A stretch of DNA of 64,000 nucleotides from Candidatus Omnitrophota bacterium. Its GTDB lineage: Bacteria; Omnitrophota; Gorgyraeia; Gygaellales; JAQTUX01. This document shows positions 2,012-58,496 of this stretch, piece after piece (position 1 is the stretch's first letter; each line of letters opens with the position of its first letter). Location: the NCBI GenBank assembly GCA_028707125.1, contig JAQTUX010000001.1, positions 977,493-1,041,492 of the forward strand. Direction: 5' to 3'. The notes under the pieces were generated by a model. The model had not been told where the DNA came from, did no database searches, and saw only the letters and a list, made by a program, of their open reading frames with translations. A program made the translations under genes and the position numbers.

Positions 2012-2423
2012 TGACGAGGTCTTTGACATATATATAGACGGCGCCTCAAAGAATAACCCCGGGCCGGCGGGTATAGGCGTGATCATCTGCCGCGGGGAAG
2101 AAGTAGTCAAGAATGTGTCGCGCTTTCTTGGCGAGGCGACAAATAATATAGCCGAATACAGCGCGCTTATTTGCGCCCTGGAAGAAGCGGTTTCTTTGGG
2201 CATCAAGCGGGTAAGGGTCAATACCGACAGCCAGCTTGTTTACAGGCAGATCAAGCGGGAATACAGGGTAAAAGACCTCAATATCAAAGTGATGTTTGAG
2301 AAGGCGCTTATGCTGCTTTGCCGTTTTGATCATTTTGATATAAGGCATATACCGCGCGCTGAGAACGAGGGCGCGGATCGGCTGGCAAACATAGCAGTTA
2401 AGAAAGCGATAGAAAAGAAATAA
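2004..2423 (+). CDS. rnhA: Ribonuclease HI family protein (RNase H-like)
   Basis: 139 aa reading DIYIDGASKNNPGPAGIGVII...ATNNIAEYSALICALEEA...RVNTDSQLV...HIPRAENEGADRLAN, an RNase H fold with DEDD-type motifs. Confidence 0.75.
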   Translation: MSNDEVFDIYIDGASKNNPGPAGIGVIICRGEEVVKNVSRFLGEATNNIAEYSALICALEEAVSLGIKRVRVNTDSQLVYRQIKREYRVKDLNIKVMFEKALMLLCRFDHFDIRHIPRAENEGADRLANIAVKKAIEKK

Positions 2424-2425
2424 TG

Positions 2426-2870
2426 CAGGTTGGATAGCCGCCCCCGTACCAACTGGCGCGGGGGAGGAAAGTCCGGGCTCCGGAAGGTTTTGCGTACCCC
2501 GATAATTTCGGGGCTATCCTCCTACGCCCATCGATGAGTAAATCATGGTAGGGCTTCGGAGCGATAAGGATCAGAGCCACAGAGACGAGTAGCGGCTGAA
2601 GATGCGATTATCAAGATCCTTCGCCCCGCTTTGCGGGGCTCAGGATCACATCGCAGCCTTCGGTTGCGATGTGAAACGCGGCAATCTCTACGCGGAGCAA
2701 GGCCAGAAAGGAGACGATGAGCCACGAAACCTGGCTCGCTTGCACCGAGTGTCACCCGCAAGGGAATATGATACGAGGTGCTATCAGTCTTGGGTAGGCC
2801 GCAGGACGCCCTCAGCAATGAAGGCGCTTAGATGAATGGCTATCATAACAGAACCCGGCTTATTAACTTG
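2426..2870 (+). ncRNA. rnpB: RNase P RNA (bacterial type A, M1 RNA)
   Basis: Contains the universal P4 strands GGAGGAAAGTCCGGGCTCC (5') and ACAGAACCCGGCTTAT (3'), plus AGATGAATGGCT and GCAAGGCCAGAAAGG-like blocks matching E. coli M1 RNA. P1 can form between CAGGTTGGATAGCCG (2426-2440) and CGGCTTATTAACTTG (2856-2870). Confidence 0.9.
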
Positions 2871-2902
2871 CATTATTTCATTATCTATAGGGGGATGTAA
2901 AG

Positions 2903-9932: not shown

Positions 9933-10050
9933 TAATTACCAATTCACCAATGACCAAATCCCAATAAATGTCCAATTATCCAATTCCCAATTTTTCTCAT
10001 TGGACATTGGTAATTGGTAATTTATTTGTCATTGGTAATTGGTCATTGGA
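9933..10050. repeat. Imperfect ~118-bp palindrome made of 7 CCAAT-containing units followed by 7 ATTGG-containing units
   Basis: Left arm ..taCCAATtcaCCAATgaCCAAAtcCCAATaaatgtCCAATtatCCAATtcCCAAT, a tttttct centre, then the right arm cATTGGacATTGGtaATTGGtaatttatttgtcATTGGtaATTGGtcATTGG. Lies in the tyrA-cmk gap. Confidence 0.8.
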
Positions 10051-10067
10051 AATTTAATTTACTAGGT

Positions 10068-10724
10068 ATGATAATCGCCATAGACGGACCGGCGGGGGCA
10101 GGCAAGAGTACCGTCGCCAAAAAATTAGCCCAGAGATTGGGCTTTATTTATATTGATACCGGAGCGATGTACCGAGCAGTCACTCTGAAGCTGCTGGAGG
10201 GCCGCGTAGACATAAAAGACGAGAAGGCGGTTGTTGAGGCGGCAAGGAGCTGCAAGATCGGACTGAAGAATCCGCCCGGAGGCGGCCTCCAGGTATTTCT
10301 TGATTCAGCGGATGTTTCTCAGCAGATAAGGCAGCCGCGCATAACGGAATTCGTCTCCGATGTGGCCAGGATAAAAGAGGTAAGGTCTGTAATGCTGGGT
10401 TTGCAAAGGAAGGCGGGCGAGGGCAAAGACGCTGTTATTGACGGCAGGGATATCGGGACCGTGGTCTTTCCCGGCGCCGAGAAGAAATTTTATATTGACG
10501 CGGATTTTCAGGAGAGGGTAGAGCGGCGTTTCAAAGAGCTGGCGGCGGCAGGGCAGGATGTGAGCCGCGGCAGCGTGGAGAAAGATCTGCGTAACAGAGA
10601 TAGTATAGATTCAAACCGCGAGGTAGCGCCGTTGAAAAAGGCCGATGACGCGGTTCGTATTGACACGACGAATATGACGATAGAGGAAGTCGTCAATACT
10701 CTATTTAACCAAGTTTTAGCGTAA
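10068..10724 (+). CDS. cmk: Cytidylate kinase
   Basis: MIIAIDGPAGAGKSTVAKKLAQRLGFIYIDTGAMYRA is the canonical Cmk start. The listed ORF start at 10014 falls inside the palindrome, so ATG 10068 is preferred. Confidence 0.85.
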   Translation: MIIAIDGPAGAGKSTVAKKLAQRLGFIYIDTGAMYRAVTLKLLEGRVDIKDEKAVVEAARSCKIGLKNPPGGGLQVFLDSADVSQQIRQPRITEFVSDVARIKEVRSVMLGLQRKAGEGKDAVIDGRDIGTVVFPGAEKKFYIDADFQERVERRFKELAAAGQDVSRGSVEKDLRNRDSIDSNREVAPLKKADDAVRIDTTNMTIEEVVNTLFNQVLA

Positions 10725-10834
10725 AACGTAAAGCGAAAAGCGCAAAACTAAAGTGTAAAACTTAAAACTATATAACAAAAACTTTAAACTTTACGTTTTG
10801 GTTTTACGCTTTGCGCTTTACACTTTTCACTTTC
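10718..10834. repeat. Family-A intergenic palindromic repeat, copy 1 (cmk-lepA gap)
   Basis: agcgtaaaacgtaaagcgaaaagcgcaaaactaaagtgtaaaacttaaaacta...aaaactttaaactttacgttttggttttacgctttgcgctttacacttttc; over 95% identical to the copies at 38421 and 58383. The left end contains the cmk stop codon. Confidence 0.85.
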
Positions 10835-10837
10835 ATT

Positions 10838-12634
10838 ATGGATAAATCACTTATTCGCAACTTCAGCATAATTGCCCACATTGACCACGGTAAATCAACG
10901 CTTGCCGACAGGATCCTTGAGTTTACCGGAGCCGTGGACATGGGGCATACCAACGACCAGCTGTTGGACGATATGGACCTGGAGCGTGAGCGCGGTATCA
11001 CCATTAAGGCGTCTATGGTGAGGATAGATTACCATTCAAAGGGCGGCAGCGATTTTATATTGAATCTTATAGATACGCCCGGGCACGTTGATTTCAGCTA
11101 TGAGGTCTCAAAGTCGCTTGCCGCCTGCGAGGGCACGCTGCTTGTGGTGGATGCCACCCAGGGCATAGAGGCGCAGACAGTGGCGAATTATCTCCTGGCG
11201 AAGGAGAACCGCCTTAAGATAATACCCGTGGTCAACAAGATAGACCTGGGCAGCGCGGATATAGAGCGCACCTGCCTTCAGTTGATGGAGATGTTCCATT
11301 TCAACGAGGAAGAAATAATCCTCGCCTCCGCGAAGACCGGTGAAGGGATAGAAGAGATACTGGAAAGGGTGATCGGTTATTTTCCCGCCCCAAAAGGGAA
11401 TGAGAACGCGCCCCTCAAGGCGCTGGTGTTTGATTCGCGTTACGATACATTCAGGGGCGTCTACGTTTACGTCAAGGTGATAGACGGCAGGATCACGCCG
11501 GACCTTTCCCTGCGGTTGATGCAATCCAATAAGGTATATAAAGTTGAAGAGTTGGGGGTCTTCTATAATCTTAAGTTCGTAAAAGTAGATTCACTTGGCT
11601 GCGGCGAGGTCGGGTATATCCTGGCAAACATCCGCGACCCCGCCGAAATAGTCATAGGCGATACGCTTACCAACGAGGCCCAGCCGGCTGATTCCGTTCT
11701 ACCCGGTTACAAGAAAATGAACCCGCTTGTTTTTTGCGGCATATATCCGGTGAATGCCGGCGACTTTAACGGGCTGCGCGATGCCATAGATAAACTGAAG
11801 CTTTCCGACGCTTCCTTTATTTTTGAACCCGAGTATTCGGCTTCTTTCGGCCACGGCTTCCGCTGCGGATTTCTGGGGCTGCTGCATATGGAGATAGTCC
11901 ACGAGCGCCTGCAGAGGGAATATGACCTGAATTTAATACTCACCCTCCCCAATGTTGTCTACAAGGTGATAAACCGCAAAGGAGAGACAAAAGATGTTGA
12001 CTGCCCGCAGGAGCTGCCTGCCCCTCCCGATATACAGGAGGTCAAGGAACCGTTCGTGTCAATGATGTTCATAGTCCCGGTTGAGTCAATAGACCCTGTA
12101 TGCGAGATCGCCAAATCGCGAAGAGGTGTATATAAATCCACGGAGTTCATAGGGCAGGACAGGGTAAAGCTGATATTTGAAATGCCTTTATCCGAGATAA
12201 TCGTTGACTTTTATGATAAAATAAAGTCCATGACCAAGGGGTATGGCTCCATAGATTATGAATTTACGGATTACCGCCCCACTGAGATCGTGCGGCTTGA
12301 TATCCTGCTTAACGGCGTGATCTGCGACGCGTTTTCTTCTCTGACCCACAAAAGCAAGGCGCAGTCAAAGGGCAGGGGGATCGTTGAAAAACTTAAGGAG
12401 TTGATACCGCGCCAGCTCTTTGAGATCAGCGTCCAGGCGGCGGTGGGCTCTCAGGTGCTGGCGGCCGAGAAGATAAGGTCTGTGGGTAAACACGTGACCG
12501 CGAAGTGCTATGGCGGCGATATCACAAGAAAAAGGAAGCTTTGGGAAAAACAGAAAATGGGCAAGAAGAGGATGAAACAATTCGGCAAGGTAGAGATACC
12601 GCAGGAGGCCTTTTTGGAGGTATTAAAGATATGA
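10838..12634 (+). CDS. lepA: Elongation factor 4 (LepA)
   Basis: MDKSLIRNFSIIAHIDHGKSTLADRILE...; G domain, EF-G-like domains and the LepA C-terminus. ATG 10838 is preferred over the upstream in-repeat start. Confidence 0.9.
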   Translation: MDKSLIRNFSIIAHIDHGKSTLADRILEFTGAVDMGHTNDQLLDDMDLERERGITIKASMVRIDYHSKGGSDFILNLIDTPGHVDFSYEVSKSLAACEGTLLVVDATQGIEAQTVANYLLAKENRLKIIPVVNKIDLGSADIERTCLQLMEMFHFNEEEIILASAKTGEGIEEILERVIGYFPAPKGNENAPLKALVFDSRYDTFRGVYVYVKVIDGRITPDLSLRLMQSNKVYKVEELGVFYNLKFVKVDSLGCGEVGYILANIRDPAEIVIGDTLTNEAQPADSVLPGYKKMNPLVFCGIYPVNAGDFNGLRDAIDKLKLSDASFIFEPEYSASFGHGFRCGFLGLLHMEIVHERLQREYDLNLILTLPNVVYKVINRKGETKDVDCPQELPAPPDIQEVKEPFVSMMFIVPVESIDPVCEIAKSRRGVYKSTEFIGQDRVKLIFEMPLSEIIVDFYDKIKSMTKGYGSIDYEFTDYRPTEIVRLDILLNGVICDAFSSLTHKSKAQSKGRGIVEKLKELIPRQLFEISVQAAVGSQVLAAEKIRSVGKHVTAKCYGGDITRKRKLWEKQKMGKKRMKQFGKVEIPQEAFLEVLKI

Positions 12635-21389: not shown

Positions 21390-22185
21390 GCTTATAATAT
21401 TGATCCTTGCCATTGTTACGGCCGGGCAAGGGGTTTTTATCTGGAAGAGGTCGATTCCCAGGACGCCAAGGATGCCGCGTGTCTCCAGGAAAGAGGCCGC
21501 GCCAAAGGCGCTGATCGCCATTGTCATAGATGATTGGGGGTATAATCTTAATAACACGGAATTCATAAAGGAGACAAAAGAGCCCTTCTCTGTTTCTATC
21601 TTGCCCAATCTCCCTTTCTCAAAGACAATTTCGGAGGCCGCGTACAATAACGATAAGGAGATCCTGCTGCATCTGCCGCTTGAACCGCATAACGAGGAGA
21701 CGCTGGGCCTGGAGAAGAATACCATATTGACCACGATGAGCGAAAAGGAGGTCAGGGATATACTACGGGTAGCGCTTGAAGATATTTCTCACGCCAGGGG
21801 CGTATCCAATCATATGGGCTCCAAGGCCACTGAGGACGTGGACCTTATGAAGACGATATTTAACGAGATGAAAAGGAACGGCCTTTATTTTCTGGACAGC
21901 CTGGTCTCTCCCAATTCGGTTTGTTTTGACCTGGCCCATAAGATGGACGTGAAGTTTGCCAAGAGGAGCGTATTCCTGGACAATAAGGAAAACCCGGACT
22001 ATATCATAGGCCAGATAGGCAAACTCGTTAATAAGGCGAAGGTTTTCGGTTACGCCATAGGCATAGGCCATGACAGGCATTCTACCCTGGCCGTGCTTAA
22101 GAAGTACCTGCCGAAACTTACGGAGAGCGGATACAAGCTGGTTACGGTCTCCGAGCTTATAGAATATGCTGACTCTGGGGATTGA
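21370..22185 (+). CDS. Divergent polysaccharide deacetylase family protein (YibQ-like)
   Basis: N-terminal TM, then ALIAIVIDDWGYN...HLPLEP...GVSNHMGSKAT, the PF04748-type motifs. Confidence 0.65.
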   Translation: MKKKNYKLIILILAIVTAGQGVFIWKRSIPRTPRMPRVSRKEAAPKALIAIVIDDWGYNLNNTEFIKETKEPFSVSILPNLPFSKTISEAAYNNDKEILLHLPLEPHNEETLGLEKNTILTTMSEKEVRDILRVALEDISHARGVSNHMGSKATEDVDLMKTIFNEMKRNGLYFLDSLVSPNSVCFDLAHKMDVKFAKRSVFLDNKENPDYIIGQIGKLVNKAKVFGYAIGIGHDRHSTLAVLKKYLPKLTESGYKLVTVSELIEYADSGD

Positions 22186-23137
22186 GACCTCCTGTGACGA
22201 GACCTCCGTTGCCGTCGTAAGGAGCGGTAAGGACGTTCTTTCAAACATAGTTTCTTCCAGTTTACCTCTTCATAAGAGATACGGCGGCGTTGTCCCGGAG
22301 ATAGCCAGCCGCCATCATCTTGAGGCGATCGCCCCGGTTTTCAAGGCGGCTTTGGATACGGCCGGTTGCGATCTGGGCCAAATAGGCGCTGTATGCGCTA
22401 CTTTCGGCCCGGGGCTGGCAGGTTCGCTTTTGGTCGGAACTTCTTTCGCGCGCGCGCTGGCGTTTTGCCGCGGGGTTCCATTAGTAAAGGTAGATCACGT
22501 TCATTCGCATATATATGCCGCCTGTTTAGGCAGGAAATTACCTATGGTTTTTCCTTTTATTGGTTTCGTGGCTTCGGGAGGGCACACGGATATCTTTTTT
22601 GTGCGGGATTTCAATAGAATGGAATTGATGGGTTCCACGCTGGACGACGCCGTGGGAGAATCGTTTGATAAGGTTGGCAGGATCCTGGGGCTGGGTTATC
22701 CCGGCGGGCCGGAGATCGAAAAACTTGCCTCGCGAGGCGATCCCGGTAAAATAAGATTTTCCTGCGCGAATATGAAAGGGACGCTCAACTTCAGCTTCAG
22801 CGGCATAAAAACCGCGGTATTGTATTACACAAAGGGAAGGAAGATCAGCCGGGCGCTTAAAGCGGATATCTGCGCCTCTTTTCAGAAGGCGGTGGCAGGC
22901 GTGCTTATAGATAAGGTGTTATCGGCCTGCAGGGCGAAAAGCGCCGGCCGTTTGTTTGTGGGGGGCGGGGTGATGTCAAACAGTTATTTACGCCATAAAC
23001 TAAGCGGGGCTTGCCATAGTAACGGCATAGAAATGTTCATGCCGGATAAGGAATATTGTCTTGATAACGCGGCAATGGCCGCGGGTCTGGGGTTTCAACT
23101 CTTAAAATCGCGAGGTGGTCATGTTAAGCCAGGGTGA
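22166..23137 (+). CDS. tsaD: tRNA N6-adenosine threonylcarbamoyltransferase TsaD
   Basis: MLTLGIETSCDETSVAVV...HHLEA... is the Kae1/TsaD family. Confidence 0.9.
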   Translation: MLTLGIETSCDETSVAVVRSGKDVLSNIVSSSLPLHKRYGGVVPEIASRHHLEAIAPVFKAALDTAGCDLGQIGAVCATFGPGLAGSLLVGTSFARALAFCRGVPLVKVDHVHSHIYAACLGRKLPMVFPFIGFVASGGHTDIFFVRDFNRMELMGSTLDDAVGESFDKVGRILGLGYPGGPEIEKLASRGDPGKIRFSCANMKGTLNFSFSGIKTAVLYYTKGRKISRALKADICASFQKAVAGVLIDKVLSACRAKSAGRLFVGGGVMSNSYLRHKLSGACHSNGIEMFMPDKEYCLDNAAMAAGLGFQLLKSRGGHVKPG

Positions 23138-28718: not shown

Positions 28719-29468
28719 ATGGGTTATATAATCGCAGTTGCGGGCAAGGGCGGAACAGGCAAGACCACGATAGCGTCGCTGCTGGTCCGGCTCCTTAAGG
28801 ACGCGGGCAAAACTTCCATTATCGCTATTGACGCCGACCCGAATTCCAATTTAGGCGATGCCCTGGGCGTTGAAGTAAAGGAGAGTATCGGCAGCATCCT
28901 GGACGATGTGGCAAAAGACCCGCGCCAGATCCCGGCGGGCACTACAAAAGACAGGTTTTTAGAATACAGGATCCAGGATTCCGTTGTTGAGGCGGATGGC
29001 TTTGACCTGCTTAGCATGGGCAGGCCTGAAGGCCCCGGCTGTTACTGTTTCGTGAATAATCTGCTGCGCGCGATGATCGCGCGGCTGGCGTCGGCTTATA
29101 AGTACGTGATCATAGATAATGAGGCGGGGTTTGAGCATTTGTCGCGGCGCACAATGCGCAGCGCCGACGTGCTTCTCATAGTTTCCGACCCATCTTCTGC
29201 CGGATTACGCGCCGCAGCAAGGATAGATAAACTATCGCGGGAATTGGATATCGCCATAAAAAGAAGGGTGCTTGTGATAAACCGCGTTAGCGGCTCAACA
29301 GCGGATACCGGCATTATACAGAAGTCAGGCATTGAGATGCTTGGCAGCATAGCCGATGATAAGGCCGTAAACGACATATCCGTCAGCGGCGGCTCGGCCT
29401 TTTCGTTGAGCGGCGCGTCGCCGGCATACCGGCAATTGAAAAAGATCGGAGAGAAAATATGGGCTTAG
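28719..29468 (+). CDS. cooC: CooC/AcsF-type Ni-insertion ATPase (CO dehydrogenase/ACS maturation factor)
   Basis: MinD/ParA-type Walker A (AVAGKGGTGKTT) plus the CooC-specific GPGCYC (CxC) metal-binding motif. Confidence 0.8.
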   Translation: MGYIIAVAGKGGTGKTTIASLLVRLLKDAGKTSIIAIDADPNSNLGDALGVEVKESIGSILDDVAKDPRQIPAGTTKDRFLEYRIQDSVVEADGFDLLSMGRPEGPGCYCFVNNLLRAMIARLASAYKYVIIDNEAGFEHLSRRTMRSADVLLIVSDPSSAGLRAAARIDKLSRELDIAIKRRVLVINRVSGSTADTGIIQKSGIEMLGSIADDKAVNDISVSGGSAFSLSGASPAYRQLKKIGEKIWA

Positions 29469-30421
29469 AGCTGGTCAAGGAAAAATGGGCGTCCGCGATC
29501 AACGTGGTGCAGATAGGCGCCGCGAAAGAAGACGGCGGTACGCGTACGCATACTGTGAAGGCAGGCGGCGAGAGCACTCTTGCCTTCCTGGAGGAAGAGG
29601 GAGGAATTCCCCACAGGCCGCTGATCGCCTATGAGGTATGGGATATAGAACCAGGTGACTGGCCTGACGAACTGAAAAACGCCTATGGCAAGGTTTTAAA
29701 GAGCCCTCTTGATTGGGCGCTTAAATGCGTAAATGAATTCAAGGCAGGCCTGCTTTGCCTGCGCCTGCAGGGCGCGCATCCGGATTCAGGTGACAGGACT
29801 GCCGATGCCTCGGTAAAGTTAGTCAAGGAATTGCTGAAGGCGACAGGGGTCCCTCTTATAATACTGGGCTGCGGCGATGATGCTAAGGATAATCAAGTGC
29901 TTGTGTCCTGCTCTCAGGCAGCCGCCGGAGAAAGATGCCTCATAGGCGACGCTGTCCAGGAGAATTATAAGACGCTTGCCGCGGCGGTGATCGCTGACGG
30001 CCACTCCATTATCGCCGAGTCGCCCATTGATATCAATATCGCCAAACAGCTCAATATCCTCATATCGGACATGGGTGTCGCGCTTGATAAGATCGTGATA
30101 AATCCCACGATAGGGTCTTTGGGTTATGGCCTTGAATACGCCTATTCTATTATGGAAAGGGCGCGTTTGGCCGCTCTCTCGGGAGATAAAATGATGCAGA
30201 TGCCCTTTATATGTTTTGTGGGTTATGAGGCCTGGCGGGCAAAAGAGGCAAAGTCAACCCTCAAGGAAACGCCTGAATGGGGCGATGAAAAAATGCGCGC
30301 TCCTTTATGGGAGGCGTTGACCGCCAGCGCGCTCCTGCAGGCAGGGGCGGATATCCTGGTGATGCGCCACCCTATGTCTATAAAATATATCGAGCAGCAT
30401 ATAGACGAATTAATGAAATGA
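29459..30421 (+). CDS. acsD: Corrinoid iron-sulfur protein small subunit (acetyl-CoA decarbonylase/synthase delta; AcsD/CdhD)
   Basis: 320-aa TIM-barrel protein (…VPLIILGCGDDAKDNQVL...) with the size and placement of AcsD beside acsC/acsE. Confidence 0.75.
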   Translation: MGLELVKEKWASAINVVQIGAAKEDGGTRTHTVKAGGESTLAFLEEEGGIPHRPLIAYEVWDIEPGDWPDELKNAYGKVLKSPLDWALKCVNEFKAGLLCLRLQGAHPDSGDRTADASVKLVKELLKATGVPLIILGCGDDAKDNQVLVSCSQAAAGERCLIGDAVQENYKTLAAAVIADGHSIIAESPIDINIAKQLNILISDMGVALDKIVINPTIGSLGYGLEYAYSIMERARLAALSGDKMMQMPFICFVGYEAWRAKEAKSTLKETPEWGDEKMRAPLWEALTASALLQAGADILVMRHPMSIKYIEQHIDELMK

Positions 30422-30577
30422 TAAACTCTAAACTCGAAACCCTAAACTCTCAACAAACCCAAAACCCAAAACTCCAAACCCAAAACCTCACTATGATGAT
30501 TGATGTTTTGAGTTTGTGGTTTAGAGTTTGTGATTTGTTTAGTGTTTAGAGTTTAGTGTTTAGGGTTTGATTTGAGG
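30422..30577. repeat. Family-B intergenic imperfect palindrome (~155 bp), acsD-acsE gap
   Basis: Left arm of aaac-containing units (aaactctaaactcgaaaccctaaactctcaacaaacccaaaacccaaaactccaaacccaaaacctca) and a right arm that is its approximate reverse complement (tgttttgagtttgtggtttagagtttgtgatttgtttagtgtttagagtttagtgtttagggtttgatttgagg). Confidence 0.8.
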
Positions 30578-30585
30578 ATTAGAAT

Positions 30586-31374
30586 ATGTTTATCATTGGC
30601 GAACTAATTAACGGGATGTACAAGGATATCGGCGCCGCGATCAGGGCCAAGGATAAGTCCGTTATCCAGAAAAAGGCGCTGGCGCAGATAAACGCGGGGG
30701 CTGACGCGCTTGACGTTAATTGCGGCCCGGCTTCCAGCGATCCGGTAAATGATATCAAATGGCTGGTGAACGCCATACAAGAGGTAACCGACAGGGCATT
30801 GTGTATTGATTCAAGCAAGCCCGAAGTCGTAAAGTCCGGTTTAGAGGCAGCCAAAAACAGCGCTATCATTAACTCAACTACTGCCGATGAAGAAAAGCTT
30901 GGCGTCCTGGTCCCGTTGGCTAAACAATATAAGGCCAAACTGATCGGCCTGACCATCAGTAAAAAGGGCATACCGCAGAATAAAGACCAGCGGTTAGAGT
31001 TGGCCGCGGCCATACTCGCCGCGGCGCAGGAAGGCGGCCTGAATACGGAAGATGTGTTCCTCGATCCCATAGTAATACCGGTAAATGTGGCTCAAGCGCA
31101 AATGAAAGATATCCTTGAGGCGGTAAGGGAGTTTAAGATAATCTCCGACCCGCCGGCAAAGACAGTAGTCGGCTTAAGCAATGTTTCGCAGGGTACTTGT
31201 CAACGCAACATCATAAACAGGGTTTTCCTGGTTATGGCTGTTGCCTGCGGTTTGGACGCGGCAATACTTGACCCCCTGGATAAAGACCTGGTTGACGCCG
31301 CGATCACCTCAGATTTGATCCTGAATAAGCAGATATACTGCGATTCGTTCCTTGAAGCGTATAGAAAAAAATGA
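30586..31374 (+). CDS. acsE: Methyltetrahydrofolate:corrinoid/iron-sulfur protein methyltransferase (MeTr, AcsE)
   Basis: MFIIGELINGMYKDIGAAIRAKD...DVNCGPASSD...INSTTADEEK...GLSNVSQGTCQRNIINRVFLVMAVACGLDAAILDP...IYCDSF aligns closely along its length with Moorella AcsE (262 aa). Confidence 0.85.
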   Translation: MFIIGELINGMYKDIGAAIRAKDKSVIQKKALAQINAGADALDVNCGPASSDPVNDIKWLVNAIQEVTDRALCIDSSKPEVVKSGLEAAKNSAIINSTTADEEKLGVLVPLAKQYKAKLIGLTISKKGIPQNKDQRLELAAAILAAAQEGGLNTEDVFLDPIVIPVNVAQAQMKDILEAVREFKIISDPPAKTVVGLSNVSQGTCQRNIINRVFLVMAVACGLDAAILDPLDKDLVDAAITSDLILNKQIYCDSFLEAYRKK

Positions 31375-31451
31375 GGCGAGGTAGCTCAGTTGGTTAGAGC
31401 ATGCGGCTCATACCCGCAGTGTCGGCGGTTCGAATCCGCCCCTCGCTACCA
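31375..31451 (+). tRNA. tRNA-Met (anticodon CAU), elongator type
   Basis: GGCGAGG..GCTCAGTTGGTTAGAGC..TGCGG CTCATAC CCGCA..GGTTCGAATCC..CCTCGCT A, with an encoded CCA. It starts one base after the acsE stop. Confidence 0.8.
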
Positions 31452-37259: not shown

Positions 37260-37615
37260 TATACGGCAACGGCGTAGATATAATTGAGGTCAACAGGATA
37301 AGACAGGCGGTGGAGAAATGGGGAGAGAGCTTTCTGGGCAAGGTATTCACTCAACAGGAACTGGAGTGCGCGAAAAAGAGGGGCTCGCCCTATGAACATC
37401 TGGCAGGCAGGTTTGCCGCCAAAGAGGCGGTTGCCAAGGCATTTTCCGACAATTCCATTACCTGGCGGGACATTGAGATAATAAACGATGGCAACGGCAA
37501 GCCATCCTGCAACATACTTAACGGCAAGAAAAAATATTTCCAGATACACGTTTCAATTTCTCATATAAAAAAATATGCGGTTGCCAGCGCGGTTGTTACG
37601 AAGGAACCCCAATAG
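37256..37615 (+). CDS. acpS: Holo-[acyl-carrier-protein] synthase
   Basis: MIYGNGVDIIEVNRI...GRFAAKEAVAKA is the AcpS family. Confidence 0.85.
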   Translation: MIYGNGVDIIEVNRIRQAVEKWGESFLGKVFTQQELECAKKRGSPYEHLAGRFAAKEAVAKAFSDNSITWRDIEIINDGNGKPSCNILNGKKKYFQIHVSISHIKKYAVASAVVTKEPQ

Positions 37616-38468
37616 CCATAAAGGCGATTTCGGCCGCGTATTTATTCTCGCGGCATCAAAAGGCATGACCGGAGCCGGTATACTCTGCGCGAAGGCGGCA
37701 ATGCGCGCGGGGGCAGGGCTGGTGACTCTCGGTATACCGAAGACGCAATACCCGATCGTGGCAAAGAGGCTGCTTGAGGCAATGACAGCGCCTCTGGAAG
37801 ATACTGGCGATGGGTGTTTGGCGCTGAAGGCATTAAGCCGCGTAAGGGATTTTTTAAAAAGAACTGATGTGCTGGTAATAGGCCCCGGCCTTTCGCGGCA
37901 TAAACAGACCCAGCAGCTGATACGTAAAGTCATCGCTGAATTTAACGGCAGCATGGTTGTGGATGCCGATGCTATAAATGCTTTGGCAGGGCATCTTGAT
38001 CTATTGTCTGTCCTGAAGAGCCCGCGGTCAGTAATGCTGACGCCTCATCCCGGAGAGTTTTCCCGGCTCGCGCGTATGTCCGCGGCAAAACTGCGGAAAG
38101 ACAGAAAAATATCCGCCCGGTCTTTCGCGAAGAAATATAAGATCGTTCTGGTGCTAAAAGGGCATAACAGCGTGGTCTGCGGCGAAGGCCGCTGCTACAT
38201 AAATAGGACAGGCAACCCGGGGATGGCTACTGCCGGAAGCGGCGATGTGCTTAGCGGTATGGCGGCCGCGTTTCTCGCGCAGGGGCTGGATACGTTTGAG
38301 GCGGCAAAGACAGCCGTGTATCTGCACGGGCTGGCAGGGGATCTGGCAGCCAGGGAGAAAACGCAGATATCCTTGATAGCGTCCGATATTATAGAGAAGA
38401 TCCCGGAAGCGGTTAAACAAAGCGTAAAACGTAAAGCGAAAAGCGCAAAAGTAAAGTGTAAAATTTAA
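37575..38468 (+). CDS. nnrD: ADP-dependent (S)-NAD(P)H-hydrate dehydratase (YjeF C-terminal domain)
   Basis: HKGDFGRVFILAASKGMTGAGILCAKAA...GPGLS...LTPHPGEF...GNPGMATAGSGDVLSG are carbohydrate-kinase-like Nnr2 motifs. The last ~17 aa (KQSVKRKAKSAKVKCKI) are encoded by repeat A2. Confidence 0.8.
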   Translation: MRLPARLLRRNPNSHKGDFGRVFILAASKGMTGAGILCAKAAMRAGAGLVTLGIPKTQYPIVAKRLLEAMTAPLEDTGDGCLALKALSRVRDFLKRTDVLVIGPGLSRHKQTQQLIRKVIAEFNGSMVVDADAINALAGHLDLLSVLKSPRSVMLTPHPGEFSRLARMSAAKLRKDRKISARSFAKKYKIVLVLKGHNSVVCGEGRCYINRTGNPGMATAGSGDVLSGMAAAFLAQGLDTFEAAKTAVYLHGLAGDLAAREKTQISLIASDIIEKIPEAVKQSVKRKAKSAKVKCKI

Positions 38469-38534
38469 AACTATATAACAAAAACTTTAAACTTTACGTT
38501 TTGGTTTTACGCTTTGCGCTTTACACTTTTCGCT
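38421..38534. repeat. Family-A intergenic palindromic repeat, copy 2 (nnr-recX gap; left arm in-frame with the nnr 3' end)
   Basis: agcgtaaaacgtaaagcgaaaagcgcaaaagtaaagtgtaaaatttaaaactatataacaaaaactttaaactttacgttttggttttacgctttgcgctttacacttttcgct. Confidence 0.85.
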
Positions 38535-58382: not shown

Positions 58383-58496
58383 AGCGTAAAACGTAAAGCG
58401 AAAAGCGCAAAACTAAAGTGTAAAACTTAAAACTAACAAACAAAAACTTTAAACTTTACGTTTTGGTTTTACGCTTTGCGCTTTACACTTTTCGCT
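58383..58496. repeat. Family-A intergenic palindromic repeat, copy 3 (guaA-dnaE gap)
   Basis: agcgtaaaacgtaaagcgaaaagcgcaaaactaaagtgtaaaacttaaaactaacaaacaaaaactttaaactttacgttttggttttacgctttgcgctttacacttttcgct. Confidence 0.85.

Follow-up and report, generated by a model that had tools for sequence, protein, structure and literature searches.

A heptamer palindrome between acsD and acsE of an Omnitrophota bacterium and its relation to dispersed PF05635 elements

What is a palindrome of about 150 nt doing inside an operon whose genes normally stand close together? The question is raised by a 64-kb stretch of a Candidatus Omnitrophota genome (contig JAQTUX010000001.1; hereafter the window, whose positions 1-64000 are used throughout), in which an element at 30422-30577, here called B, separates acsD from acsE in the acs operon. 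An earlier description made from the letters of this DNA (the sequence-only reading) had seen in B a run of degenerate heptamers followed by their reverse complement, placed it just ahead of the ribosome-binding site (RBS) of acsE, and proposed that it might act as an operon-internal attenuator. Our comparisons point elsewhere: B is very probably a non-autonomous, internally deleted miniature of a dispersed palindromic element that carries a PF05635 gene, inserted recently between acsD and acsE and now devoid of its open reading frame (ORF).

The palindrome and its gene-bearing relatives

The palindromic build of B is borne out by inspection of the sequence, by an inverted-repeat search and by Tandem Repeats Finder (TRF). 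About nine heptamers of the form AAACNCN are followed, after a short centre, by GTTTNGN units that form their imperfect reverse complement; with its flanks, the element fills the acsD-acsE gap (span ~30418-30585) and ends just before the acsE RBS. The left arm reads TAAACTC TAAACTC GAAACCC TAAACTC TCAAC AAACCCA AAACCCA AAACTCC AAACCCA AAACCTC. The inverted-repeat search delimits arms of 79 nt with 72% complementarity (30412-30490 and 30494-30572) as well as a shorter pair of 68 nt with 78%, and TRF assigns period 7 to both arms. The parts of the locus are the following:

30418-30420, + strand: ATG at the left end of the element, overlapping the acsD stop codon TGA (ATGA); the consensus of the left-arm alignment is aagATGttAAACTCT
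30422-30486, + strand: left arm, ~9 AAACNCN heptamers (sequence, inverted-repeat search, TRF, nhmmer)
30487-30503, + strand: loop of 17 nt, CACTATGATGATTGATG, in the predicted folds; site of the PF05635 ORF in the full-length copies L160 and L196
30504-30569, + strand: right arm of GTTTNGN heptamers; its final 36 nt, GATTTGTTTAGTGTTTAGAGTTTAGTGTTTAGGGTTT, agree with the family consensus GATTTGTTTAGGATTTAGAGTTTAGTGTTTAGAGTTT
30570-30585, + strand: spacer GATTTGAGGATTAGAAT, containing the acsE RBS GAGGA (30574-30578) just outside the stem
30418-30549, + strand: vestigial ORF of 43 codons, MINSKLETLNSQQTQNPKLQTQNLTMMIDVLSLWFRVCDLFSV followed by a stop, beginning MINSKLETLNSQQTQ; it runs through the hairpin, in frame with the ORF 30307-30549

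The sequence-only reading had raised the possibility of folding in RNA, and in prediction both RNA strands fold far more stably than shuffled sequences. None of 200 dinucleotide shuffles was as stable as the element, whether folded as sense (+) RNA (−47.6 kcal/mol, z −5.2), as antisense (−) RNA (−56.8 kcal/mol, z −6.9) or as DNA (−28.8 kcal/mol, z −6.2). Extrusion of a cruciform in DNA, which the sequence-only reading had also considered, appears unlikely for arms of 72-78% complementarity around a 17-nt centre.

B is not confined to this locus, so that the lack of further copies, one of the findings by which the sequence-only reading would have been refuted, does not apply. A scan of metagenome contigs with the pattern AAACTCN AAACTCN AAACCCN AAACTC returned at least 120 loci, many of them plain arrays, and at least 13 contigs carry both a left and a right end as in the window, between flanking genes that are unrelated. 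Their common left end is (A)TG(T/A)T AAACTCT AAACTCG AAACCCT AAACTCT, continued by the irregular AAACAAAC, and their right end, GATTTGTTTAGGATTTAGAGTTTAGTGTTTAGAGTTT, departs from exact complementarity to the left one. Against these consensus termini the window shows 3 mismatches in 46 on the left (30418-30460) and 3 differing positions on the right (30533-30569). With nhmmer profiles made from the other copies, the window being excluded, the left arm was matched at 30418-30486 on the + strand with an E-value of 2.3e-12 (the best match on the − strand, 0.0018, falls on the right arm, 30570-30514) and the right arm at 30477-30570 with 4.3e-10. In BLAST comparisons, the window left arm is 93-96% identical over 41-57 nt to six copies (L144, L236, L133, L210, L196, L203). 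The heptamers of the series are fixed, non-identical variants that are kept from copy to copy, and the mismatches between the two arms are likewise conserved (13 arm pairs compared); in unit number the window departs from the consensus by a single unit, its right arm being one unit longer.

Scans of other collections gave less specific results. In a genome collection, three consecutive AAACNCN units retrieved generic arrays from many phyla; among the matches listed, ~15-20% had an inverted partner, mostly with the T-rich arm first, opposite to the window. In viral contigs, the B pattern found three plain direct arrays only, and the pattern of family A, a second palindrome family of the window described below, found none.

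The copies on other contigs connect B to a gene. The full-length element consists of an ATG, a left heptamer arm, an ORF of 119-134 aa belonging to PF05635/TIGR02436, and an imperfectly reverse-complementary right arm. Such copies measure 450-540 nt (L160 and L196 ~455 nt; L251 and L252 ~540 nt, including an outer pair of arms) and hold the ORF in the loop. On PF05635 (“23S rRNA-intervening sequence protein”; cut-off 33.8), the ORF of L160 obtains 43.9 bits and that of L196 49 bits. With 61.5 bits, the L160 ORF also exceeds the cut-off of 24 for TIGR02436 (“four helix bundle protein”), and it has a match at 3e-14 in PDB entry 2rld. In every full-length copy, including those of distant subfamilies with other arm units, the PF05635 ORF is the sole gene between the arms. 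A protein search with the subfamily ORF yielded at least 7,998 relatives at an E-value of 1e-5. In the predicted RNA of a full-length copy, the two ends pair to form a single long stem, with interruptions, that encloses the ORF (−124.9 kcal/mol, z −3.1).

Arm and gene are also linked by reading frame. The ATG of the element is in frame with the PF05635 ORF through the left arm, and 72 of the 120 protein clusters of the subfamily start with the arm-encoded peptide MLNSKLETLNSKQTQ. By arm alignment, the ATG at 30418-30420 in the window corresponds to the upstream start codon of the 134-aa form of the ORF in full-length copies, and the first 15 residues of the vestigial ORF are the arm-encoded N-terminal extension of the family protein; as a whole, this 43-codon ORF has no Pfam match.

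Between the full-length copies and the window lies a series of deletions. L133 and L210 retain just the first ~20 and the last ~30 nt of the ORF, and in L245, L192, L144, L203, L236 and the window only the arms are left. By comparison with L160, L196, L133 and L210, the window loop could be what is left of the beginning of the ORF (CCGTATGAT...). The spacer at 30570-30585 resembles, as judged by eye, the outer-arm sequence GATTTCGGATTTAG of L251 and L252; positions 30570-30583 are thus probably element-derived too, and the acsE RBS itself may have come with the element.

The distribution of the copies suggests a mobile sequence with a bias of position and orientation. L251 and L252 are >97% identical and lie 39 kb apart on one contig of a Thermodesulfobacteriota metagenome-assembled genome (MAG), in different operons: one between rmlB- and rmlD-like genes, the other between genes for a PD-(D/E)XK protein and a leucyl aminopeptidase (peptidase M17). 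All 13 copies with a recognisable upstream ORF are co-oriented with it, and in nine of them the element starts 0-20 nt from the upstream stop codon (27-88 nt in the other four).

Several observations weigh against this interpretation. B is up to 84-86% identical to generic (AAACTCT/AAACCCT)n arrays, so the similarity is partly one of low complexity; membership therefore rests on the order of the variants, the irregular unit, the asymmetry of the arms, the right-arm match and the conserved arm-to-arm mismatches. Both B arm profiles find nothing else in the 64 kb, which thus hold no second B copy, and narrow and broad hidden Markov models (HMMs) together with six-frame ORFs reveal no PF05635 gene in the window. 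Covariation across the 13 arm pairs is seen in 1 of 32 base pairs, the arms being too conserved in sequence to separate constraint on RNA from constraint on DNA. All five heptamer palindromes of the window, B and those described below, are more stable as antisense than as sense RNA, which gives no sign of selection on the structure of the sense strand. Finally, no target-site duplication is visible at L251 and L252, and the lists of their neighbouring genes contain no transposase or reverse transcriptase (RT); the mobility of the element is therefore deduced from its distribution and not from a mechanism.

This last point bears on the possibility that B is moved in trans by a transposase, either as a relative of the repetitive extragenic palindromic (REP) sequences and bacterial interspersed mosaic elements (BIMEs), served by a Y1 enzyme of the REP-associated tyrosine transposase (RAYT) type, or as a classical miniature inverted-repeat transposable element (MITE) served by a DDE enzyme, with the PF05635 gene as a passenger. 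Like REP/BIME sequences, which are abundant, with hundreds of copies, and can stabilise upstream mRNA, B is an intergenic imperfect palindrome between co-directional genes; the family is dispersed and includes gene-less miniatures, and family A offers three near-identical copies in 64 kb. The lack of a target duplication would also agree with HUH/Y1 systems acting on hairpins (for REP/RAYT, PMC3333891). REP sequences are 20-40 nt long, share a head tetranucleotide that is conserved and are associated with Y1 transposases (PMC3333891), whereas B measures ~150 nt, is built of heptamers, has no GTAG-type REP head and occurs once in 64 kb. A DDE-derived MITE fits no better, since B has terminal inverted repeats but no duplication and its parent carries PF05635 instead of a transposase. 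That PF05635 is the sole gene between the arms in all full-length copies and in distant subfamilies favours a functional link over a passenger, and we regard transposition in trans as improbable.

A similar verdict applies to growth in place, by which a heptamer microsatellite would have expanded through slippage and then undergone inverted duplication by template switching. Many bacteria show an excess of heptamer arrays, and close relatives differ in them (PMC4692102, PMC4679880); two relatives of the window organism (L125, L127) bear heptamer palindromes of their own with other units at other junctions, and unit numbers do vary, as in (TTTTGAA)4 versus (TTTTGAA)5, in the 272-nt (CGACTTG)n arm of Nostoc ATCC 53789 and in the additional right-arm unit of the window. 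Slippage can account for such changes of length but not for the origin of B: the variant order TCT, TCG, CCT, TCT, AAACAAAC, the arm mismatches and the right arm with its own sequence are all found again on contigs unrelated to the window, and intermediates that retain the ends of the ORF connect B to gene-bearing copies. Growth in place is thus largely refuted for the origin of B and very unlikely as its explanation.

Insertion into the acs operon

The insertion can be followed by comparison with relatives that lack it. The two genes that flank B in the window are:

29459-30421, + strand: acsD, small subunit of the corrinoid iron-sulfur protein (PF03599 CdhD, E 9.7e-37), with its stop codon TGA at 30419-30421
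30586-31374, + strand: acsE, methyl-tetrahydrofolate:corrinoid methyltransferase (PF00809)

They belong to the gene order acsC, RACo, CooC-like ATPase, acsD, B, acsE, tRNA with anticodon CAT, tilS, ftsH. The AcsE protein of the window is 100% identical to MDD4910030.1 (MAG Candidatus Omnitrophota), and five relatives were recovered through AcsE homologues. The order of the acs genes is conserved in all of them, and the distance between acsD and acsE compares as follows:

Window: gap of 164 nt
L001: AcsE 96% identical in amino acids (92% in nucleotides over 1.5 kb), gap of 20 nt
L002-L004: AcsE 81% identical in amino acids, gap of 5 nt
L125: AcsE 77% identical in amino acids, gap of 4 nt
L127: AcsE 79% identical in amino acids, gap of 2 nt
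L129: AcsE 79% identical in amino acids, gap of 24 nt

The insert is thus absent from the acsD-acsE junction in all five relatives, whose gaps of 2-24 nt confirm that B interrupts a normally tight operon just ahead of the acsE RBS. The C-terminus of AcsD, DELMK followed by the stop, is identical in the window and in L001. The copy entered between acsD and acsE after the split from the 92%-identical relative, at the acsD stop codon and in the orientation of the genes. No target-site duplication is present at the window site in comparison with the empty site of L001. The “empty” gap of L001 (697-716) reads CGAGTAG CAAGTAG AGAGAC, a sequence resembling two to three heptamers, possibly by chance.

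Downstream, the tRNA gene with anticodon CAT (31375-31451) begins one base past the acsE stop codon and lies directly upstream of tilS; it is probably tRNA-Ile2, the substrate of TilS (tRNA-Ile lysidine synthetase), and not tRNA-Met. A putative tRNA gene, read by eye, also stands downstream of acsE in L125 (~11525-11598), ~1.1 kb upstream of tilS.

In the transcript, the insertion would have consequences that can be read from the predicted fold. The acs message would gain an interrupted stem of ~65 bp with regular 1x1 mismatches, the base of which would place the acsD stop codon close to the acsE RBS and leave the RBS unpaired. Ribosomes could melt this stem by way of the vestigial ORF, which is coupled to acsD through ATGA and ends 37 nt before the ATG of acsE. 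By analogy with rRNA intervening sequences and other co-transcribed hairpin repeats, the stem is also a plausible substrate of RNase III, cleavage by which would split the acsD and acsE messages. On balance, acs expression is probably little affected, as expected for the tolerated remnant of a parasite rather than for a designed attenuator.

Searches for signals within the element gave little. A consensus scan of 30400-30600 found no terminator-like site and no stem with a U tract, a promoter scan produced weak promoter-like matches only, and at Rfam gathering thresholds the element has no match (the window as a whole yields only RNase P RNA and three tRNAs). B differs in this from an intrinsic terminator or attenuator, in which a U tract follows a G+C-rich stem, having no terminator-like site and no conservation in the orthologous operons of the five relatives examined. 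It is accordingly very unlikely that B is a cis-regulatory RNA (an attenuator, a terminator, or a processing or stability element) under selection for differential expression of acsD and acsE: a strong hairpin is predicted exactly between the two cistrons with the RBS free, and repeats of the REP, Correia and enterobacterial repetitive intergenic consensus (ERIC) types are generally known to alter the stability of flanking mRNA, but the insert is missing in all five relatives, no stem with a U tract and no Rfam match are found, folding is better on the antisense than on the sense strand, and the element also occurs between unrelated genes such as the rmlB-rmlD and PD-(D/E)XK-peptidase M17 pairs named above. 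The attenuator of the sequence-only reading is left unsupported by the short gaps in the relatives together with the lack of a terminator-like site and of an Rfam family, and the same sequence between unrelated genes elsewhere speaks against it too.

Other heptamer palindromes in the window and its relatives

B is one of several palindromes of this build in the window. Short-period autocorrelation over the 64 kb singled out 42 scanning windows for period 7, against 0-1 for each of the other periods within 4-11, and this signal comes from five loci only: B, three copies of family A and an element of CCAAT heptamers. All five have an A-rich arm followed by a T-rich arm and occupy gaps between co-directional genes. 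Besides B, they are (no strand is assigned):

9934-10056: CCAAT heptamer palindrome in another gene gap, with the architecture of B and a different unit
10720-10833: family A, copy 1; the stop codon TAA (10722-24) of the upstream ORF lies inside the element
38419-38534: family A, copy 2; the upstream ORF 37575-38468 extends ~50 nt into it with a Lys-rich tail
58385-58496: family A, copy 3

Family A is a heptamer palindrome of ~112 nt, AGCGTAAAACG...CACTTTTCGCT, and the near identity of its three copies shows that palindromes of this kind are duplicated as whole units. Profile and BLAST searches found no sequence relation of B to family A or to the CCAAT element, in agreement with the sequence-only reading, which had set B apart from family A. 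The same reading held that this genome generates or tolerates long palindromes. Tolerance is evident from the five loci; generation in place is not, as termini 93-96% identical to those of B recur on unrelated contigs and full-length members carry PF05635. It is plausible that families A and CCAAT are miniatures of other PF05635 subfamilies. A CCAAT-type palindrome of like architecture (86% over 37 nt) occupies the gene gap 4420-4575 of L133, 2 kb from the B-type element of that contig, so the two families co-occur in another organism.

The better folding of the antisense strands might suggest an antisense RNA. We rejected this reading, the result showing just the lack of a sense bias.

Heptamer palindromes with other units were also seen in the relatives: one at 6213-6341 in L125 fills the acsC-RACo gap, which is 2 nt in the window, and others lie after or between tRNA genes (L125 11599-11672, L127 18531-18577). 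Within tsaD, three relatives have heptamer arrays at one and the same spot (L125 1963-2031, L127 763-829, L129 513-579). Their units, GGAAAAA, GGGTAAA and ACAAGAC, keep the reading frame and code for a Lys-rich, variable loop that follows the conserved motif SGIKTAVLYK; in the tsaD of the window (22166-23137), the loop after this motif is short. The long RNase P RNA of the window (2422-2878, class A, 156 bits, 457 nt versus 367 nt in the model) was considered as a further host of heptamer inserts, as known from cyanobacteria, and excluded: it has three ordinary helix expansions and no heptamers. As to the window at large, all non-nested ORFs of at least 150 aa in 1-64000 are on the + strand, an unusually complete strand bias for 64 kb, and the GC skew is positive throughout (~+0.13).

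PF05635 genes and inverted heptamer arrays

The relation between gene and arms extends well beyond the subfamily of B. Among plasmids of cultured bacteria, tblastn with the ORF as query found 24 records, mostly from Nostoc, Anabaena, Aulosira, Planktothrix and Pseudanabaena, the remainder from Bacteroidota, Chloroflexota, Treponema and Monoglobus. We examined the flanks of 15 plasmid genes for a “four helix bundle protein”, selected by protein similarity alone (loci L256-L269, from Nostoc, Anabaena, Aulosira, Planktothrix, Pseudanabaena, Chlorohelix, Treponema and others). Clear period-7 arrays flank ~11-12 of the 15, usually as an inverted pair and with a unit specific to the copy, and the genes that have them come from four of the five phyla sampled. 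In eight of the plasmid loci, 155.7 kb in total, 16 of the 22 period-7 arrays lie within 200 nt of nine PF05635 genes, although these flanks make up 2.3% of the sequence. Examples of arrays upstream and downstream of the gene are:

Nostoc flagelliforme and Aulosira: upstream (AATTCAA)4, downstream (TTTTGAA)4-5
Planktothrix: upstream AATCCCC and AATCGTA, downstream CGATTTA; STRR1-like
Nostoc ATCC 53789: upstream (CAAGTCG)n, downstream (CGACTTG)n of 272 nt
N. punctiforme, two genes: (GGAGGTC)/(CGACCTC) and (GGGTGTG)/(CACACCC)
Ca. Chlorohelix: (ATGAAGG)/(TTCATAA)
Treponema: (GAAAGGT...)/(TCTCCGC...)

Among the loci that had been fetched by heptamer pattern, a broader PF05635 HMM found eight more ORFs, each between inverted arrays of its own unit, and L131 and L247 carry further PF05635 ORFs with inverted heptamer arrays (pattern-fetched loci with arrayed PF05635 genes: L053, L082, L088, L131, L150, L159, L163, L202, L211, L247). 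In all, packaging between inverted heptamer arrays is seen in Cyanobacteriota, Chloroflexota, Spirochaetota and Thermodesulfobacteriota; Bacteroidota show it more weakly, and Omnitrophota have gene-less miniatures. PF05635 genes also stand inside operons, between cas2 and cas1, hsdS and hsdR, the adaptor and permease genes of a resistance-nodulation-division (RND) system, or a helicase and a methylase gene; on plasmids of Anabaena cylindrica, Pseudanabaena galeata and Nostoc sp. TCL26-01 (L257, L259, L265), a heptamer-armed PF05635 gene lies between cas2 and cas1 or beside cas1.

Several known systems share part of this organisation. The 23S rRNA intervening sequences (IVSs) of Leptospira, Coxiella burnetii and Brucella and those with the Xanthomonas-type S23p resemble the full-length family in having an inverted-repeat stem and an ORF of ~120 aa for a PF05635 four-helix bundle, which in both cases lies in the loop, sense to the host transcript. 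In Coxiella, the S23p ORF is enclosed by terminal inverted repeats that RNase III cuts within the stem, a strain-variable number of GACAGAT heptamers stands just before the S23p start, and decay and deletion of the ORF are documented (PMC4990558). IVSs reside in helix 9, 25 or 45 of the 23S rRNA, whereas B lies in an mRNA spacer and the window holds no rRNA; moreover, the arms of B are far longer heptamer arrays (~65 nt), and the window copy is a stem without ORF. As B does not reside in 23S rRNA, we class it with the ORF-bearing IVSs in kind but not in location: it represents an IVS-type element of the PF05635 family that occupies an intercistronic spacer and is reduced to a gene-less miniature.

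The Correia elements of Neisseria and the ERIC sequences or intergenic repeat units (IRUs) of enterobacteria are likewise palindromic repeats of ~100-150 bp in gene gaps and are co-transcribed with their neighbours. Correia hairpins are cut by RNase III in RNA, and ERIC/IRU sequences change mRNA stability. Unlike B, these repeats create target duplications (TA in the case of Correia elements), neither of the two is built of heptamers, and to our knowledge no full-length form with PF05635 exists for either.

PF05635 is also homologous to Avd, the accessory protein of diversity-generating retroelements (DGRs) (PMC10053308). Avd, and hence a homologue of the cargo protein of our family, is a pentamer that binds nucleic acid and RT. 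Full-length members share with DGRs the Avd-like ORF; unlike in DGRs, the gene lists around L251 and L252 show neither an RT nor a pair of template and variable repeats.

The short tandemly repeated repetitive (STRR) sequences and other heptameric simple sequence repeats (STRR1-3, GGGAATC, TAACTGA) of cyanobacteria, Xanthomonas and Beggiatoaceae are intergenic, often intra-operonic and sometimes arranged in inverted pairs (PMC4692102, PMC4679880). They resemble B in their tandem 7-nt units, and STRR1-like AATCCCC arrays flank the PF05635 gene of Planktothrix. They differ in being described as simple repeats without a gene, whereas B has a fixed order of variants, a partner arm and gene-bearing relatives. 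In the literature searched, the papers on STRR, GGGAATC and TAACTGA repeats mention no associated gene, and a link of heptamers with S23p is stated only for the Coxiella IVS, though it may be described in further papers.

These parallels invite a broader proposal, which we put forward tentatively and consider possible rather than probable. PF05635 genes and inverted heptamer arms might constitute one previously unrecognised class of selfish elements, which would invade rRNA helices and the spacers between stop codons and RBSs, would be rendered harmless through folding of the RNA, removal or tolerance, and would decay to hairpins, thereby being the source of much of the heptamer excess known from STRR sequences and their relatives. 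The 7-nt register would then reflect binding or copying of the arms by the four-helix-bundle oligomer or by a partner polymerase or RT, and families A and CCAAT would be sister miniatures.

With regard to the acs operon, a false lead is thereby eliminated: the hairpin, the remnant of a recent parasite, has no part in the control of Wood-Ljungdahl genes. More interesting than the copy in the window is the general co-occurrence of PF05635 genes and inverted arrays of heptamers. Descriptions of PF05635 proteins as “CRISPR-associated” or “defence-associated” may merely reflect where the element lands and not a shared function, and two puzzles, the excess of 7-nt repeats in bacterial genomes and the nature of the 23S rRNA IVS proteins, become one testable question.

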